From an uncultured Candidatus Bathyarchaeia archaeon (GTDB taxonomy: Archaea; Thermoproteota; Bathyarchaeia; Bathyarchaeales; Bathycorpusculaceae), in the NCBI GenBank assembly GCA_964527165.1, contig CAZGNE010000006.1:1601-65600 (forward strand): a DNA stretch of 64,000 nucleotides, read 5' to 3'. The first letter of the stretch is position 1, and the number at the start of each line of letters is the position of its first letter. Below are positions 2,400 through 64,000 of this stretch, one piece after another. Below the pieces are notes generated by a model, which worked only from the letters and a program-made list of their open reading frames with translations, was not told the DNA's origin and made no database searches. The position numbers and the translations under genes were made by a program.

Positions 2400-5300
2400 T
2401 TGAAATTGGTTGAAGTCTTAAAGGAAGATACTCATCTTATGTTGAAGTCATTCTTTAGAACGAAAGGACTTGTCCGCCAACATCTAGACTCTTTCAACGA
2501 GTTTATAGATCATGGACTACAAGAAGTGATAGACGAAATCAGCGAAATACCAATAGAAGTCCCCGAAAACCCGTACAAAGTGAAGCTTGGTCAAATATGG
2601 ATAATTGATCCACAAACAAGAATAACCGGATCTTACGTGACCGAGGTAGACGGTACAAAACATGAGATCTACCCACTCGAAGCAAGACTTAGAAACCTAA
2701 CCTATGCAGCACCAATAGCACTTGAAATGACGCCAGTCATAGATGGCAGAGAACAAGATACAGAACTAGTTTACATAGGCAATATCCCAGTTATGCTTAA
2801 ATCAAAACTGTGCTTCCTCTCTCAACTCTCACGAGAAGAACTGATAGCCTGTGGAGAAGATCCCGACGATCCTGGCGGATATTTCGTAGTAAATGGCTCA
2901 GAACGTGCAATAGTCGCCATGGAAGATTTGGCTCCCAATCGTGTTATAGTGGACGTAGATGATAAAGGTGCCACACCTGTATATCAAGCTAAAATATTTT
3001 CCACAACAGTTGGCTTCAGAGCAAGAATAGAGTTAAAAATCAAGGCAGATGGAGCCATATACGTATCAATACCAGGCGTACCAACAGAGATCTCCTTTGT
3101 AGCTTTAATGCGTGCTCTAGGCTTGGAATCAGATAAGAATATTGCCGAAGCAGTTTCCCTTGAGAAAGAAATTCAAATGAAACTAAATCCTTCTTTTGAA
3201 AAAGCCTTAGGGATAGATACTCCAAAAGACGCAATCCTTTTCATCGGAAATCGTGTTGCTCACGGTCAAGTAGAAGAATACAGATTGCAGAAGGCCGAAA
3301 CTGCGATAGACAAGAACTTTTTACCCCACATTGGCAGAACCGCTCAGAATAGGGGAGACAAAGCCCTGTTCCTCGGTGAAATGGCCTGCAGAGCTGTAGA
3401 ACTAGAACTCGGAAGAAGAAAGCTTGACGACAAAGATCATTTTAAGAACAAACGATTGAGGCTTGGAGGTACATTGCTTGCGGATCTTTTCAGAGTGGCC
3501 TTCAGAAATCTTATCAGAGACATAAAATACCAGCTTGAACGGATAGGCGTGAAAGGTCCTATAATAACTGTTTCCGCCGCCGTACGACCGGGAATAATTA
3601 CTGAGCGATTTCAACACTCGATTGCTACAGGAAATTGGGGAAGAGGAAGAGTTGGCATAACTCAGCTTTTGGATAGGACAAACCATATTTCAACTCTTAG
3701 CCACTTGAGGCGACTTCAGTCGCCATTAAGCAGAAGCCAACCAAACTTCGAAGCAAGAGACTTACATGCTACCCATTGGGGGCGTCTATGCCCAAACGAG
3801 ACACCTGAAGGATCGAACTGTGGACTAGTTAAGAATTTGGCACTGTCCGCCTGTATTTCAGTTGGGGTAAATCCAGATAAGATAAAGCAGATGCTTACAG
3901 GCATGGGATTGATCCCTGTATACGAAGCAAACGAAATATTAAGGCTTTCAGGCACTAAAGTTTTCATAGACGGAAACATTGTTGGCTATTGTAACACTCC
4001 TGAAGAAATGACGAAAAGGTTTAGAGAAAGGCGCAGAAGAGGAGAAATTTCGACTGAGGTCAACATAGCCTATTTCTCAAAGACCCAAGGTGAAAGAGAA
4101 GAAATAGATGTCAACGCCGACGAAGGAAGAGTCAGACGACCCCTCATAATTGTCGAGAACGGTGCTTCAAAATTCCAGCCAGAACACATTGAAAAAATAG
4201 TTTCTATGGAATGGTCATGGGAAGACCTAGTCAAAAACGGTATCATAGAATACTTAGATGCTGAAGAAGAAGAAAACGCGTACATAGCATTGAAAACTGA
4301 GGAAATAACACTAAACCACACTCATTTAGAAATCGCGACATATACAATTTTTGGAATTTGCGCTTCAACAATTCCCTATGCCGAACACAACCAATCACCA
4401 CGTAATTCCTACCAAGCCGCAATGGCAAAACAAGCCTTAGGAGTTTATGCTACAAACTTTCAGCAACGGGTAGACTCCAGATCACACATTCTACATTATC
4501 CACAAGTGTCCATAGTTGAAACAGCTTTGATGGAGACAATGGGTTACAAGCTTCGCCCCTCTGGACAAAACTGTATAGTAGCAGTGCTCTCCTATGAAGG
4601 TTACAACATGGAGGATGCTATAGTCTTCAATAAAGCCTCGATAGAAAGAGGATTAGGACGCTCAACTTTCTATAGGATATACGAGGCTGAATGTCGTCAA
4701 TACTTAGGAGGATTGAAGGACAAATTCATCTTGCCAGAGCCTGGAACTCGGGGGTTCCGTGGAGAACAATATTATAGATTACTTGAACCTGATGGGATAA
4801 TCAGCTTGGAATCAAGCGTTACAGGAGGAGATGTTCTAATCGGCAGGATCAGTCCGCCGAGGTTTCTAGAAGAATACAAGGAATTCGAAGTAAAGGGACC
4901 GTCAATGCGTGACACATCTGTAGATATGCGACCTTCTGAAACGGGTATTGTCGATGGAATTTTCATAACAGAGTCAGGGCAGGGAAGTAAACTCGTAAAA
5001 GTGAGAGTTCGCGACCAACGTATTCCCGAGTTAGGCGACAAGTTTGCCTCTCGCCATGGGCAAAAAGGCGTCATAGGCTTAATTGTCCCGCAAGAAGACC
5101 TGCCATTTACAGAAGACGGCATAGTCCCAGACATAATAGTCAATCCTCATGCTATTCCTTCAAGAATGACGATTGGACAATTCATTGAATCATTGGCAGG
5201 AAAACTTGCTGCCATTAGAGGGAAGCCGGTTGATGGAACACCTTTCTCAAATGAAAGTTCTGAAGAAGTTAGAAAAGCTCTCATCAAGCTGGGCTTCAGC

Positions 5301-57968: not shown

Positions 57969-58382
57969 TCAATCCTCGCCGTCTTCGTCTTCCTCTTCTT
58001 TTTCTCTCTTCTTCTCTCTTAGTTTTTCTTCGATTTTTCTTGAGAGTTCTTCGCCGAGCTTTTCCTTTTTGAACTCTCCTTTTCCGCTTGTCGCATGTTT
58101 GAGCATGTCTCCTAGGCTTGTGAAAGTTCCCATGTAGTTTTCAGTCATCTTGACCGCGGTTTCTTCAGGCATGCCTGCTGCTCTTAACTCTTTGTAAAAG
58201 GCTGCTGCCGCTTTGCCCATGTCTCTCCCAGCGTCTTCGGAAAATACACTTCCGATTATCCCTTTGACTAGTGCGGGTACTTCTTTTGAAACTACTCCTA
58301 GGACCTCTCTTAGTTCTTCGACATCTTCTTTTCCTTCTTTTTTCTTTGCCTTTTCTTCGATCATTTCAAGTTTCACCTCCAT
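57969..58382 (-). CDS. hypothetical highly charged protein
   Basis: 137-aa ORF. Its K/E-rich termini explain the polypyrimidine tract at 57965-58040. Confidence 0.5.
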   Translation of the reverse strand: MEVKLEMIEEKAKKKEGKEDVEELREVLGVVSKEVPALVKGIIGSVFSEDAGRDMGKAAAAFYKELRAAGMPEETAVKMTENYMGTFTSLGDMLKHATSGKGEFKKEKLGEELSRKIEEKLREKKREKEEEDEDGED

Positions 58383-58402
58383 TTAATCTCTTTTTGCTGT
58401 AA

Positions 58403-58627
58403 TTAACGGTTTTGTAATCTTTGAGCGAGTTGAACTGCTTGGGCTTTTGTGTGTTCGGCTTCCTGTAGAGTATTCATTGCCTCTCTGTTTATTGGAACAC
58501 TCTTAGCCCAGCTGATCCTTTTATCTAGTCTTCCGTGTTTTTTTCCATATCCCATCATTCCAAAGAGCTTGTCTAGAATGTTGTTTCTACGATTTCCTGC
58601 TCGTATTCCTTTTTTGACTATATCCAT
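58403..58627 (-). CDS. hypothetical small basic protein
   Basis: 74-aa ORF in the same string. No motif. Confidence 0.4.
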   Translation of the reverse strand: MDIVKKGIRAGNRRNNILDKLFGMMGYGKKHGRLDKRISWAKSVPINREAMNTLQEAEHTKAQAVQLAQRLQNR

Positions 58628-58704
58628 TTTCTTTCACCTCTACAGTATGTAAAGGCGTGGTTACTGCTGTTATTCATTATGGAAAAAAGTGGTCAGACAT
58701 TCGG

Positions 58705-59166
58705 TCACTCTGTAAGCTCGTAGACGTTTCCGTACCCTTCAGCTTTACGGATGATGACTTTTTCTTCTAGGCGCTCCACTCTTTCTCTTATGATTCTTCG
58801 TGAAGATTTGCCGCGCATCTTTCTGACTTGCCGCGTTATTGCAGAAATGTTCAGTTTTTCGTGCATGGCTAGGGCTTGCACTATGCATCTTGAAATGTCG
58901 TCCTGTACAATCTCTGGCTTCTTCAGGTGTTTTTCAGCGGTTTTTAGACGTGCTGCCACCTTTAGGGGTTCGCCATATAAGCCTACGCCTGTGCGTGTCA
59001 TGCGTAAGTAAGGCGCTAAGCTGGCGTATTCAGAATTTTCTGTGATGAACGTTTCCAGTGTTTCAAGCCTTTCCATTATTAGGTCAAGTTTCTTGCTTAG
59101 CTCTTCTATGCTTGCGCCTTTTTTCTCGGTTGTGCCAGTGTCTTCTTTTGGGGTCATGCCTTTCAT
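58705..59166 (-). CDS. winged-helix DNA-binding protein
   Basis: 153-aa ORF. The C-terminal [51 protein letters not shown]...YELT has a wHTH pattern. Confidence 0.55.
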
Positions 59167-59262
59167 GTTCTTATACGTTTAGCTTTGATAAAGGTGTTTG
59201 TGGCTTTCGAACTTGTTCGAAGTGTATGAGAAAGGTTTCACAGGCTCAATTGATATGCTAGT

Positions 59263-59880
59263 TTAGCTCCTTGATTGTGAAGCTTGTTTGAGCATGTTGT
59301 TGCCTAAGACTATAGCCCACGTTGAAGCTGATAGTGCAGAGATGGTTTCGGGAATGGCCACGTTTGGGGCATATTGCACTGCAAAATAGACCCCCCACGG
59401 TCCTGCTGCCACTAGGGCTATGGTCAACGTGAACAGACCCATCTTCATCTTGCCCATCTGTAGAAAAGCAGCAACAAGAACAAGTAAGGCTAATGGTAAA
59501 AGTGCAAAAAACGCCACAGAAGCATAATAGTGCAGTGGCTTGATGTTCTCAGGAAAAATGCCAATAGCAATTAGAGCCAATGTCGCGAGAACAAAGGTGA
59601 ATGTGCCGATCTTGGCAAGAGTTTTCTTGCTAAGAGAGTGGAATAGACCGATAGCGAAAGCTAGTGCGAAGAGCCCGCTGGTTATTAAACCGTAGTTGAA
59701 TAAGGGTGCGGTCAAGCCTTTTTGGATGCCTAAGTTGCTTAATGCGTTATCTGTCCAGCTGAACTCAGGAGAATAGTGAATTGCAAGTAATATGCATGTG
59801 AACGCAACTAGGGGTGTGATTACGCCGCAGACTCCGCTTATTCTAAGCCAAATTAGGTCTCTCTGGTTCATAATTTTCAT
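59263..59880 (-). CDS. polytopic membrane protein (DUF998-like pattern)
   Basis: 205-aa ORF with about 6 TM helices. Family assignment is tentative. Confidence 0.5.
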   Translation of the reverse strand: MKIMNQRDLIWLRISGVCGVITPLVAFTCILLAIHYSPEFSWTDNALSNLGIQKGLTAPLFNYGLITSGLFALAFAIGLFHSLSKKTLAKIGTFTFVLATLALIAIGIFPENIKPLHYYASVAFFALLPLALLVLVAAFLQMGKMKMGLFTLTIALVAAGPWGVYFAVQYAPNVAIPETISALSASTWAIVLGNNMLKQASQSRS

Positions 59881-60057
59881 TTATTCATAAGGGATGCTGT
59901 TTCTTAAAAGAATTGAGGAAGCCGTTTGCTTGGTTTTTGGATCGTGCTGGAACATGCTTCACAATAATGAATCATTCTCAGTTTTGACTAATCGATTGAG
60001 CGTTAATCTTTATCAGATGCTCACCTCTTCTGTAACCTTTTGAGAAGTGGATAAGCT

Positions 60058-60492
60058 TTGGTGGTTAATTTGCGATCGGCTCAAAAAAAACACGTGGATA
60101 TCTTGGAAAAACTCTTCAACGAGTTTTCTGAGCAGCAACTGAAGAGAGGCTTGTCCATTCAAAAAGCTATTTGCGATCCAAACGCGGAGATCCTGGTTGC
60201 CGAAGTTGAGGGTGAGATTGTTGCGTTTCTTCATCAGGTCTTTTTTGAAGACCCACTTCACGCAGGCGTCAATTCTTTGATAACTAGCCTTTTTGTCGGC
60301 AGGGCTTATAGAAAGCGTGGCATCGCTGCAAGTCTGATCGCGAAGGCAATTGAGAACGCAAAAGCAAGAAAAGTGCAAGAAGTGCATGTGACTACTAGAG
60401 TGAATAACACTCAAGCTATCCGTTTGTACGAGAAACTTGGGTTTCACAAAGAAGGCGTACTCCTCGAAATGAACCCCCGGAACGCAAATTGA
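60058..60492 (+). CDS. GNAT-family N-acetyltransferase
   Basis: 144-aa ORF. RGIAASLIAKAIENAK (acetyl-CoA Q/RxxGxG/A-like loop) and NTQAIRLYEKLGF. Confidence 0.85.
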   Translation: MVVNLRSAQKKHVDILEKLFNEFSEQQLKRGLSIQKAICDPNAEILVAEVEGEIVAFLHQVFFEDPLHAGVNSLITSLFVGRAYRKRGIAASLIAKAIENAKARKVQEVHVTTRVNNTQAIRLYEKLGFHKEGVLLEMNPRNAN

Positions 60493-60555
60493 GAGCATAC
60501 ATGGTTTAGGACATAGAGAGAATTATAGCACTATAGGGTAATCGGAATCGAGTAT

Positions 60556-61030
60556 ACGTCCACATTGGGGAAAGCGTGGGCGGCTTGGGCTGTAAGTAGT
60601 AGAAGCTCCGAAATCACGAACCACTACTACTTTTAAGCTGAAACTGTCCAAGGGCTTCCCAGCGAGGCTTAGGGCTGGAAGCAGTCGACACTAAGACCTA
60701 TAGGACTACTACTATTGTGGGGAAAATGCCACAGCCATTCGCCGAAAAACGATCAATCGTGGGCTGAAAGAACAAAAAAAAGCCGCACACAAAGTTTTTT
60801 TCTTCTTCCAGCGTGAAAACTGCCCTACGAAGCGCAAAAGAAGCCCTCGTGAAGATCGAGCGATACCTGCAAACTCGTGGAAGCAGAATTCGAGTGTGTC
60901 ACAGAGTTGAAAGGCGCCAAAGTCTTCAAGAAACGCAAGTAACCGCACACATCCCCCAAAGTGCGGAGGGTTTATCCAGAACAATGTTGAAAGTGCGGGG
61001 GTGGGACCCCCACCCGAATTTCCCGGTAAA
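60556..61030. ncRNA. candidate structured non-coding RNA(s), identity unknown
   Basis: GC-enriched ORF-poor island. Hairpins: AAGTAGTAG...CTACTACTT, TGTGG-GGAAAATG-CCACA, CTTAG...GCTG-GAAG-CAGT...CTAAG, ACTCG-TGGAAGCAGAAT-TCGAGT, CCGCAC...GTGCGG and GGGTGGG-ACC-CCCACCC. Repeated TGGAAGCAG and CCGCACACA. Central A8-GCCGCACACAAAG-T7 tract. Ends can pair (GGGAAA..GTGGG with CCCAC..TTTCCC). Confidence 0.4.
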
Positions 61031-61062
61031 AAATCATATCAAATATGCTCGATGAAAGTTTC

Positions 61063-61605
61063 TCACAAGGCTTGAATGGTTTGTAAAATTGTAAGCACGC
61101 CAGCTTCTTTGGCTCTTCTTTGAAGGTATTTATTGTCCAATTTGTTTTCTTGTCTGGTCAACACGCTTTTTACGTCTTGTTCATCAATTACTCCTCTATC
61201 GGGTCTGGCTAGCTTGTTTACTATGAAATCCTCTGCGGAAACAATCCATGCCCAAATGTTCGTATCTAGCTGAACCTTCTGTCTTCTTCTTAAGGTTTCG
61301 TCATCAAAAATAATTCCATCAGGTCTCAACCATAGTTCAATTTCTATTTTCTCCTTTCGGTCGAGAATAACAATTAAAGGGTTTTCGGGAGAGGAGATGG
61401 TAGGTTCAAAATCCTTTGATTGTAGCAAATTTAGAAGTTGGTTTAATTCTTTGTCGGTTTTTATTGCTACTGCCAAGTCAATGTCAACCGTTGTTCGAAT
61501 TCTTCCATAGAAAGGAAGAGCATAGCCCCCAATTATCATGTAGGGAACATTGTTGTCTTCAAATAGTTTCAGAAGTCTCTGAAGAGATTTTAATATTGCT
61601 GGCAA
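61063..61605 (-). CDS. minimal nucleotidyltransferase-fold protein (MNT/AbiEii-like)
   Basis: 180-aa ORF. PYMIIGGYALPFYGRIRTTVDIDLAV is the GG...G..R.T.DxD signature of the Pol-beta NTase superfamily. Confidence 0.7.
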   Translation of the reverse strand: MPAILKSLQRLLKLFEDNNVPYMIIGGYALPFYGRIRTTVDIDLAVAIKTDKELNQLLNLLQSKDFEPTISSPENPLIVILDRKEKIEIELWLRPDGIIFDDETLRRRQKVQLDTNIWAWIVSAEDFIVNKLARPDRGVIDEQDVKSVLTRQENKLDNKYLQRRAKEAGVLTILQTIQAL

Positions 61606-61969
61606 TTGTGTTCAACTCCACAAAAATCTGGAAAGGCGAATGACCGTTTGCAACAAGTCTACTGGTATACGCTGCATCTCTTACTGCGTGTTCCAAGTCC
61701 TCTTTTCTCGCTCTAAGTGGTTTCATTTTCAATTTCCTGTAAGTTTCCAGAAACTCAAAACCTAAGGGAGTGCATATTATGTTCTTTTTAGGTCTACCTC
61801 TCCTCGAATGTGCAGCCTTTTGTAGATCAATGAGCTTCTCTTTGTTCATCTCTCTTAATAAAGAGACAACCTTTGATGTCTTCCATTCCAGCGCTTGGAC
61901 TAGATCTCTGACACCGCAGGTGGTCGATACAGCGGCTTCAAGTATTCGAGCTCTTTGATCCAAAGACAT
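61559..61969 (-). CDS. winged-helix protein upstream of the NTase (putative antitoxin/regulator)
   Basis: 136-aa ORF overlapping the NTase gene by 47 nt. The N-terminal RDLVQALEWKTSKVVSLLREMNKEKLIDL...GRPKK has a wHTH pattern. Confidence 0.55.
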   Translation of the reverse strand: MSLDQRARILEAAVSTTCGVRDLVQALEWKTSKVVSLLREMNKEKLIDLQKAAHSRRGRPKKNIICTPLGFEFLETYRKLKMKPLRARKEDLEHAVRDAAYTSRLVANGHSPFQIFVELNTIASNIKISSETSETI

Positions 61970-62249
61970 TTTGTTTCCCTTCTGGAAACTTATTCACGTA
62001 TAAAATGAGAGAAACAACTATTTAAACATGCCGCAATCTTTTCTTGTGACATATTACCTTTTATTGGTAAACATGTGTTCAAATTTCAACCCTCAACCAC
62101 AAAGCCATAAATCAGGATTTTTCCACCAGAAAATAAGCTCATAAAACGCCCCAACTCGAGTGCGGGGGATTAGGTTTAGATATTGGTTTAAACTTTCGGA
62201 TTTTGCTTGGTCCTAGAAAGTCTGTTTGAAGAGAGGTCATTAATGTTTT

Positions 62250-62645
62250 TTATTCATCATACTCTACTATTCTGTTTATTCGTTTGGCAGTTTCAACCGC
62301 ATTCTTCGCTTCTTTAGGCAACGGAGCTATTCCATCAAACCCTGTTCTCTTGATGTAGGAGATCAACATTTTCCTCAGTTCCTCAGAATCCCAGCTGGCC
62401 ATTTTGTCTGGTGTATCTACGCCTGCATCATAATACAGTCTTGCTCTTACGCTTTTAATGGCTCCAAGTCTGCTTAAGTCAGACAACTTGACATATTCCA
62501 GAATCGATTCTAATGGTATCCCTGTTTTCTGGGACAGTTTTTTTCTGTCTTGTGAGGTTTTTCCTTTTTCGAGCATATGATTAACAGTTGTTATTCCTTC
62601 CTTTTCTAGCAGTCGCTTTGTATAGCTGGTCAAGGTTATACTCAC
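62250..62645 (-). CDS. helix-hairpin-helix protein (DUF4332-like)
   Basis: 131-aa ORF with two HhH-like repeats (EKEGITTVNHML; YDAGVDTPDKMA). Tentative. Confidence 0.5.
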   Translation of the reverse strand: MSITLTSYTKRLLEKEGITTVNHMLEKGKTSQDRKKLSQKTGIPLESILEYVKLSDLSRLGAIKSVRARLYYDAGVDTPDKMASWDSEELRKMLISYIKRTGFDGIAPLPKEAKNAVETAKRINRIVEYDE

Positions 62646-62699
62646 CGATCTTCTTTACAGAATCATTTACTCAAATTCTATTGACAGTGATGGTGAACA

Positions 62700-62905
62700 T
62701 AGGACTCTTAGCCTTCATTTTGGTGACCATGATAGTCCCGAACTGGATCTTGGAATTCAAGGCTGATAGAATTGCGGCAAAATTCGCAGGAAAAGAGAAC
62801 ATCAAATCAGCCTTGCTTAAATTTGTGAACAAAGAAGATTACGAAGAACCATCAGAGACACATCCATCAATAGCCGAAAGAGTAAAGCGCATTGACAAGG
62901 CATAG
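62700..62905 (+). pseudogene. C-terminal fragment of an M48/HtpX-like peptidase
   Basis: The end of the 62588..62905 ORF reads EFKADRIAAKFAGKENIKSALLKFVNKE...ETHPSIAERVKRI, a typical M48 C-terminus. No HExxH part exists. Its upstream part collides with the opposite-strand gene. Confidence 0.55.
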
Positions 62906-63009
62906 TTACTTGATGTAAGTCTTCTTCGAGAGCAAACGGGCTCCATAACCTCTGTAATTTGTACGCTTATTGAAATAAACAAGCGTTAAATTTTGGAACT
63001 AGGTTATTA

Positions 63010-63669
63010 TTGTCCCTTGACCGATTCGTGACTTTCTACAACCTTGCGAAAGAAAATAACAGAAAAATCATAATTTCGAAAAGGCATGCGTACTTGCTTG
63101 AAGAATTGCAGAATGTGCCTGCGCTCCAAAAAGCTATTCCGGAAATCGATGATGAGAACATTCTCATCTACATCGATAGGAAAGATACTGGTCGGTTTGG
63201 AGAATCTGACTATGATAATTGGGAGCGAAAATTCTTAGAAATGGCTAACGCTGTTAAAGCAGACATGATACACGAAAATCAGGCAGATGCTCTTGTCTGC
63301 TTGACTTTTTTTGACGTAAATGAACTAATCGATATTGCGCCAAACGCTGGAAGCATCTATGTGCATTCAACCTCTGAACCGCATAACGAAGAACAGATAT
63401 TTGATGAACAAAGATTGAACAATTGGATTGACTTCTTTCGCTTGAAGAAGCATCACTTTCATTGTTCAGGGCATGCCAACGGAAAAGAGATTCGGGAAAT
63501 GATTCAAACCATCAATCCAAAAGAGCTAATGCCAATTCACACTAAACAACCTGAACTCTTTGAAAAAATGCATGATAACGTTAAGAAGCCCAAACTAGAA
63601 GATCCAAGCCCAGATGTGATATTTGCTTCAAGCTCACTTTCGTCAAGGACGTCTCGGAGTCTTTCTTGA
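63010..63669 (+). pseudogene. 5'-truncated beta-CASP / metallo-beta-lactamase RNase (RNase J / aCPSF2-like), C-terminal half only
   Basis: The 219-aa ORF contains the beta-CASP and final MBL motif HCSGHANGKEIREMIQTINPKELMPIHT. It lacks the N-terminal HxHxDH domain, and the upstream 100 nt is full of stops. Confidence 0.6.
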
Positions 63670-64000
63670 AGTTCTCCCCGCTCAGCTTCTCTGAAGATGT
63701 TAGGGTGCGTACGACCATGGAACGTCGTTTGGCACCCTCGGCTTTGACCCGGGGTCAAAGTTTGAAGGGGTGGCCTTAGCCTCTAAAGAGAACGCTTTGT
63801 TAACTGGCATGCTGGAGCTTCCAAAGGGCATAGCTAAAAAGATGGGGCAGAGGAGACAGCAGAGACGTTTCAGGCGATACAGAAAATGTCGGAGGAGACA
63901 GTGCAGATTCGACAATCGCAAGCGGAAGGACGGATGGATAGCTCCCTCGCAGAAGGCGAAGGTAGGGTTCAAACTGAAAATCATAGAGGAATTGAAGAAG
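63620..64000 (+). mobile_element. IscB/IsrB-like (OMEGA-family, IS200/IS605-associated) RNA-guided nuclease gene; 5' part only, N-terminus disrupted; runs off the window
   Basis: The frame open from 63704 to the window end reads GTLGFDPGSKFEGVALA (RuvC-I), then the Arg-rich bridge helix KKMGQRRQQRRFRRYRKCRRRQCRFDNRKRKDGWIAPS. No start codon lies upstream of the catalytic Asp. PLMP-like traces (FVKDVSESFLKF / SPRSASLKMLGCVRPWNVVW) lie in two other frames. Confidence 0.6.

Follow-up and report, generated by a model that had tools for sequence, protein, structure and literature searches.

Remains of an isrB gene, truncated on both sides, at the end of a Bathyarchaeia contig

The right-hand edge of the window, the 64,000-nt stretch of DNA analysed here (positions 1601-65600 of contig C6), very probably carries the relic of a horizontally acquired IsrB element that was inactivated by deletions on both sides. 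IsrB, a relative of IscB without the HNH domain, is a small enzyme that nicks DNA under the guidance of an RNA and is akin to the ancestor of Cas9. The intact protein, about 350 residues long, comprises a PLMP domain, a split RuvC domain with a bridge helix, a phosphate-lock loop, and the WED and TI domains; guided by an omega RNA, it finds a TAM-flanked target and nicks it. What is retained at the locus described here is the RuvC domain together with the start of the phosphate-lock loop. Good descriptions already exist of IsrB/ISC1 elements, of the HEARO omega RNAs that go with them and of how nicking works (PMC9581776; review PMC13565253).

Results

Extent of the retained reading frame

Contig C6 ends at its position 66122, so that 522 further bases could be read beyond the window. 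Positions below are those of the window, continued to the contig end, unless a contig is named. The IsrB frame is open from 63704 to a stop at 64418-64420, a run of 238 codons; those that follow 64348, 23 in number, are unrelated to IsrB. When a profile of 42 full-length relatives was run against the six-frame translation of the contig end, it scored 363 bits and matched over profile positions 58-261 of 348 only. The features of the locus are the following.

63010..63669, plus strand: C-terminal half of a beta-CASP/RMMBL metallo-hydrolase, a 5'-truncated fragment (Pfam RMMBL, E 1e-6)
63632..63664, plus strand: probable last trace of PLMP, AHFRQGRLGVF, sharing its frame with the RuvC core (profile positions 33-43)
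63692-63694 and 63701-63703, plus strand: two in-frame stops, TGA and TAG, in a PLMP-RuvC linker that is 8 codons longer than the relatives'
63704..64000, continuing past the window to 64348, plus strand: IsrB core reading frame (family profile positions 58-261 of 348)
63740..63754, plus strand: RuvC-I motif GFDPG, with the catalytic Asp codon (63746-63748) lying 5' of every possible start codon
63770..63811, plus strand: first in-frame starts, GTG 63770 and ATG 63809; a product from either would be without the RuvC-I Asp
63848..63925, plus strand: Arg-rich bridge helix and REC-linker region, QRRQQRRFRRYRKCRRRQCRFDNRKR (from the DtIsrB domain map, PMC9581776)
63932-63949, plus strand: GWIAPS, directly after the Arg-rich region
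64019-64036, plus strand, beyond the window end: RuvC-II motif VVIEDV
64226-64243, plus strand, beyond the window end: RuvC-III motif SHAIDA
64350-64522, minus strand, beyond the window: internal fragment of a wHTH-like protein (residues 112-146 of a protein of 182-217 aa)

A sequence-only reading of the window had described a frame from 63704 with a RuvC-I motif, an Arg-rich stretch and GWIAPS, and all of these are present exactly as quoted. It had also stated that no start codon precedes the catalytic Asp. This holds: between the TAG at 63701 and the Asp codon there is no in-frame ATG, GTG or TTG. Reading past the window edge, which the same source had proposed as a check, revealed both RuvC-II and RuvC-III, separated by a linker of 63 residues over which the relic is colinear with DtIsrB. 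The three parts by which the split RuvC of an IsrB is recognized (the RuvC-I Asp, the RuvC-II Glu and the RuvC-III His/Asp motifs) are therefore all there.

Assignment to IsrB

The Pfam RRXRR family matches the frame with an E value of 2e-32 (112.9 bits, the cut-off being 25). Among solved structures the best match is DtIsrB (8DMB; E 1.3e-48, residues 11-214), with which the relic is colinear and about 50% identical over 204 residues; IscB structures match only the bridge-helix/RuvC-II part, with E values of about 1e-8 to 1e-9. The NCBIfam guided_IscB profile scores 105.7 bits, below its cut-off of 175, and covers only profile positions 54-160. No HNH domain was found in the relic, either as a Pfam match or as an insert between RuvC-II and RuvC-III. 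Since RRXRR occurs here without HNH, guided_IscB stays below its cut-off and DtIsrB is by far the best structure, the relic gene is isrB (ISC1-type, HNH-less) and not iscB. The proposal of a degraded IscB/IsrB-type OMEGA nuclease in an archaeon is thus supported by RRXRR, by 8DMB and by the family profile, and can be narrowed specifically to IsrB; profile searches placed the frame in RRXRR/IsrB and not with an unrelated Arg-rich protein.

The protein database holds 342 homologues of the relic. The best of them, 352-355 aa long, come from a Hydrothermarchaeota MAG (72% identity) and from Ca. Alkanophaga liquidiphilum (71%). Intact archaeal relatives measure about 350 aa and are 66-72% identical.

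The left end

The frame that leads into the relic from the left is the beta-CASP fragment which had been noted as ending at 63669, and which corresponds to the C-terminal part of a beta-CASP/RMMBL protein. With its relatives, proteins of 450-460 aa, the alignment is confined to residues 3-194 of the 219-aa ORF, so that the beta-CASP homology ends near 63591. The natural stop of the gene has been lost, and the ORF runs into the IsrB junction.

Traces of the PLMP domain had been proposed in two other frames (FVKDVSESFLKF, then SPRSASLKMLGCVRPWNVVW), with a shift at a run of four Cs. The N-terminal profile, used with filters off, had no hit in either of these frames and gave no support to a frameshift at this run, which in fact occupies 63676-63679. 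The best match of that profile is instead AHFRQGRLGVF, in the core frame itself, in which A33, L40, G41 and F43 are kept with exact spacing. This match is not significant alone, and the PLMP profile (positions 1-57; filters off) gave no significant match in any of the six frames. In a tblastn search with the Hydrothermarchaeota MAG protein, the alignment runs in the core frame, across the two stops, as far as RLGVF. Rather than at least two frameshifts, as previously suggested, the 5' end thus appears to have lost the omega RNA and some 32 codons by deletion, in addition to having the two in-frame stops. Read-through of the TAG, or its decoding as Pyl, was rejected, because a TGA precedes it by three codons with no start codon in between.

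The left junction would lie at about 63591 to 63632, or at 63740 at the latest if the PLMP trace is a chance match; as the trace is not significant by itself, the breakpoint is uncertain within 63591-63740. With the junction so placed, neither an omega RNA nor the first 32 or so codons could fit in.

Other features of this region may be mentioned. The tail of an M48 peptidase (105 aa) and the beta-CASP half (219 aa) stand back to back at 62588-63669. No full-length copy of the beta-CASP gene is present in the genome, whereas all good-quality relatives (23 of 23) have one. Within the final 3.5 kb of the contig there are four gene fragments: the M48 tail, the beta-CASP half, the IsrB relic and the wHTH fragment.

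The right end

Alignment of the DNA with the Alkanophaga locus showed that similarity is lost right after the sequence cacagattcc, at 64349. A C-terminal profile (positions 263-348) found nothing significant in the six frames of the contig end: WED and TI are gone. This 3' truncation is damage additional to that described in the sequence-only reading and lies beyond the window edge.

The sequence that follows belongs to a wHTH-like gene of which two genomes of the host's family have intact copies. The fragment contains a 1-nt frameshift in an A run, its match stops at the IsrB junction, and the N-terminal part of the protein was not found in the assembly. Since the match is on the minus strand, the IsrB frame reads its last 23 codons from the antisense strand of another gene fragment. 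From this junction to the contig end there are 173 nt.

Omega RNA and copy number

In the loci of relatives, the Rfam HEARO model detected an omega RNA directly upstream of isrB in nine of ten cases (49-84 bits), ending about 20 nt before the start codon. An nhmmer profile made from these nine RNAs found a match in 9 of the 11 other loci, bringing the overall count to 18 of 20. The omega RNAs of intact relatives are about 210-280 nt long. The same two tools, Rfam HEARO and the clade-specific nhmmer profile, detected no omega RNA in the host's own whole genome, at the contig end or in the interval 58000-64000, including the 60.5-61.0 kb island that had been singled out for such a search. The earlier statement that there is no room for an upstream omega RNA agrees with this result.

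The relic is the only IsrB copy detected in the 1.45-Mb genome. Searches for further copies, also proposed in the sequence-only reading, were negative by tblastn with the remnant and two full-length relatives and by blastn with the element's DNA. With full-length relatives as queries, the missing ends of the protein (PLMP and positions 262-348) were not found elsewhere in the genome.

The only other OMEGA/IS605-type genes detected in this genome are one gene for an IS200/IS605-type Y1 transposase (TnpA), at C9:43830-44186, and one TnpB-like gene, a 380-aa frame at C59:505-705.

Distribution and origin

Archaea account for nearly all of the closest relatives of the relic (Hydrothermarchaeota, Alkanophaga, Asgard groups, Bathyarchaeia and Methanoperedens), which does not fit the remark that genes of this kind are uncommon in archaea. 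The remark applies at closer range: an IsrB match occurs in just 4 of the 300 other genomes from the host's class, two of the four being broken as well, and within the host's family a single one of 60 other genomes has any match, covering PLMP only. As to the host, the PolB gene in the window shares 66% identity with those of Bathyarchaeia MAGs. The IsrB core has a GC content of 46.9%, as against 39% in both flanks. The GC difference, the rarity in family and class, and the position of the nearest relatives in other archaeal phyla all point to a foreign origin. Horizontal acquisition followed by decay would be the simplest reading of these sequence comparisons.

The family match just mentioned is a 206-aa open frame (G055:C22:5115-5264) that aligns only with the PLMP part of IsrB (positions 3-52). 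Possibly this is some other protein with a PLMP domain, such as an IshB-like one. The two class genomes with broken copies retain profile positions 3-214 plus 262-338 (G151:C309) and 243-339 only (G215:C235). At positions 3001-3218 of a Ca. Methanoxibalbensis ujae locus, only profile positions 51-97 were found. In a locus of Ca. Methanoperedens nitroreducens (from DYGR01000001.1; positions are those of the locus), 17 CRISPR repeats with weak RF01373 matches form a minus-strand array at 1107-2320. Some 270 nt downstream of its end come a HEARO omega RNA (2595-2804) and an intact IsrB gene, which places an OMEGA element right next to a CRISPR array. No paper on IscB in Bathyarchaeota came up in a literature search.

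Discussion

How the relic may have arisen

We envisage that an IsrB element of the ISC/IS200-IS605 kind, made up of an omega-RNA gene and isrB, entered a Bathyarchaeia-like archaeon horizontally. A deletion on the left would have removed the omega RNA and approximately the first 32 codons, joining the rest to the 3' end of the beta-CASP fragment. A deletion on the right would have taken everything after codon 262 or so (part of the phosphate-lock loop, WED and TI) and placed the relic next to an antisense internal fragment of the host's wHTH-like gene. Two stops lie in the linker that remains, and no start codon allows translation of the RuvC-I Asp.

In DtIsrB the domains are PLMP (1-59), RuvC (60-253), the phosphate-lock loop (254-267), WED (268-286) and TI (up to 353), and nicking is abolished by deletion either of PLMP residues 1-52 or of the TI beta7 strand (PMC9581776). 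Lacking a guide RNA, a TAM reader and a complete active site, the relic should be unable to work as an RNA-guided nickase, and its nicking activity is predicted to be absent. The surviving core keeps every conserved residue, which suggests that inactivation was recent in comparison with the 28% divergence from the nearest known relative. Since this relative is only 72% identical, synonymous sites are saturated.

Alternative explanations

The relic lies at the extreme end of its MAG contig, amid several abrupt gene fragments, and its core differs in GC content from the flanks. Such an arrangement could arise if the contig end mixed reads of different genomes or loci, with an intact IsrB present in the population. 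We consider a chimera of this sort very unlikely. A separately assembled Logan contig of 1858 nt, from run SRR8652709, is 100% identical to positions 62583-64440, with the M48 tail, the beta-CASP fragment, the two IsrB junctions, the C run and the stops all present in it. This contig argues against a chimera specific to the MAG, although it possibly comes from the same sample; were that so, a shared assembly error or a minority variant would still be conceivable. Furthermore, the missing IsrB ends and the omega RNA are on no other contig of the bin, and the junctions contain no repeat that might have misled an assembler.

The state of the core raises a different question, namely whether selection has kept it. 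According to the family alignment, the columns covered by the relic include 35 invariant ones, all of which are kept, and 37 near-invariant ones, of which 35 are kept; the two lost ones belong to the disrupted N-terminal stretch, ahead of every possible start. Over 238 codons the frame is free of stops, whereas the 24 codons just upstream contain two, an asymmetry that fits selection on a product made from an internal start, and gene callers do predict a product (203-207 aa). The fragment could thus be a guide-less, nuclease-dead RuvC core of 203-216 aa, translated from GTG 63770 or ATG 63809 and recently domesticated for a non-nuclease role, such as nucleic-acid binding via the Arg-rich helix. 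Nuclease-dead TnpB derivatives that act as regulators provide a parallel. Domestication, if true, would explain why the conserved core residues are intact beside upstream stops. Several observations nevertheless leave it with a very slight chance. Not only are PLMP, WED and TI gone, when the activity of DtIsrB needs the PLMP-RuvC-TI scaffold (PMC9581776), but the omega RNA is absent throughout the genome. The C-terminal 23 codons of the would-be protein are the antisense of a host gene fragment, the four neighbouring features are all gene fragments themselves, and 60 genomes of the family contain no conserved homologue with a similar truncation. Finally, both stops fall inside one 8-codon insertion and may represent a single event.

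The presence of the RuvC/RRXRR part alone and the guided_IscB score below cut-off could also suggest a mere look-alike of IsrB, be it an Arg-rich protein of unrelated origin or a RuvC-like resolvase standing alone, but the chance of this is close to nil given about 50% identity to DtIsrB over 204 residues (E 1e-48), 66-72% identity to proteins of about 350 aa that have PLMP, TI and upstream HEARO RNAs, and homology that breaks off abruptly inside conserved blocks at both ends.

Implications

The relic is an ordinary pseudogene of a known family and is not novel; neither a new editing tool nor new biology comes from it. Annotators should label the locus an isrB pseudogene and not a "hypothetical" or "RRXRR domain-containing" protein. 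Under the reading favoured here, decay of a horizontally acquired element, IsrB would have entered a Bathyarchaeia-like lineage in which it is rare (about 1% of genomes) and would then have been quickly disabled. The end of the contig, as a cluster of at least four gene fragments, is useful for judging the gene content of the MAG. Practical interest lies with the intact close relatives that have omega RNAs, such as those of Alkanophaga, Sifarchaeum and Freyarchaeota.

Comparison with known systems

IscB (ISC2, HNH-containing; OgeuIscB, 7UTN/7XHT) has the RRXRR/bridge-helix and RuvC-II region in common with the relic. It differs in the HNH domain inserted in its RuvC, which is absent from the relic, and the similarity is much weaker than that to IsrB.

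The DtIsrB-omega RNA complex of Desulfovirgula thermocuniculi (8DMB; Hirano et al. 2022, PMC9581776) resembles the relic, with which it can be aligned over the entire RuvC domain, in its succession of RuvC-I, bridge helix, REC linker, RuvC-II, a short linker replacing HNH, and RuvC-III. DtIsrB, however, also has PLMP (1-59), the full phosphate-lock loop, WED, TI and its omega RNA, whereas in the relic PLMP is a broken trace, the part from within the phosphate-lock loop through WED and TI (about 264-353) is gone, and so is the omega RNA.

The intact archaeal IsrB loci of Alkanophaga liquidiphilum (JAPHEF010000002.1) and the Hydrothermarchaeota MAG share with the relic a core that is 71-72% identical and alignable at the DNA level. 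They have a full ORF of 352-355 aa and a HEARO RNA just before the start codon, while the relic is without either end.

Other decayed copies are those in Ca. Methanoxibalbensis ujae and in the two class genomes (G151 and G215). Like the relic, these are partial or split archaeal IsrB frames, but different parts have been kept in each, as independent events at other loci. Decayed copies of IsrB are a recurrent feature of archaeal MAGs.
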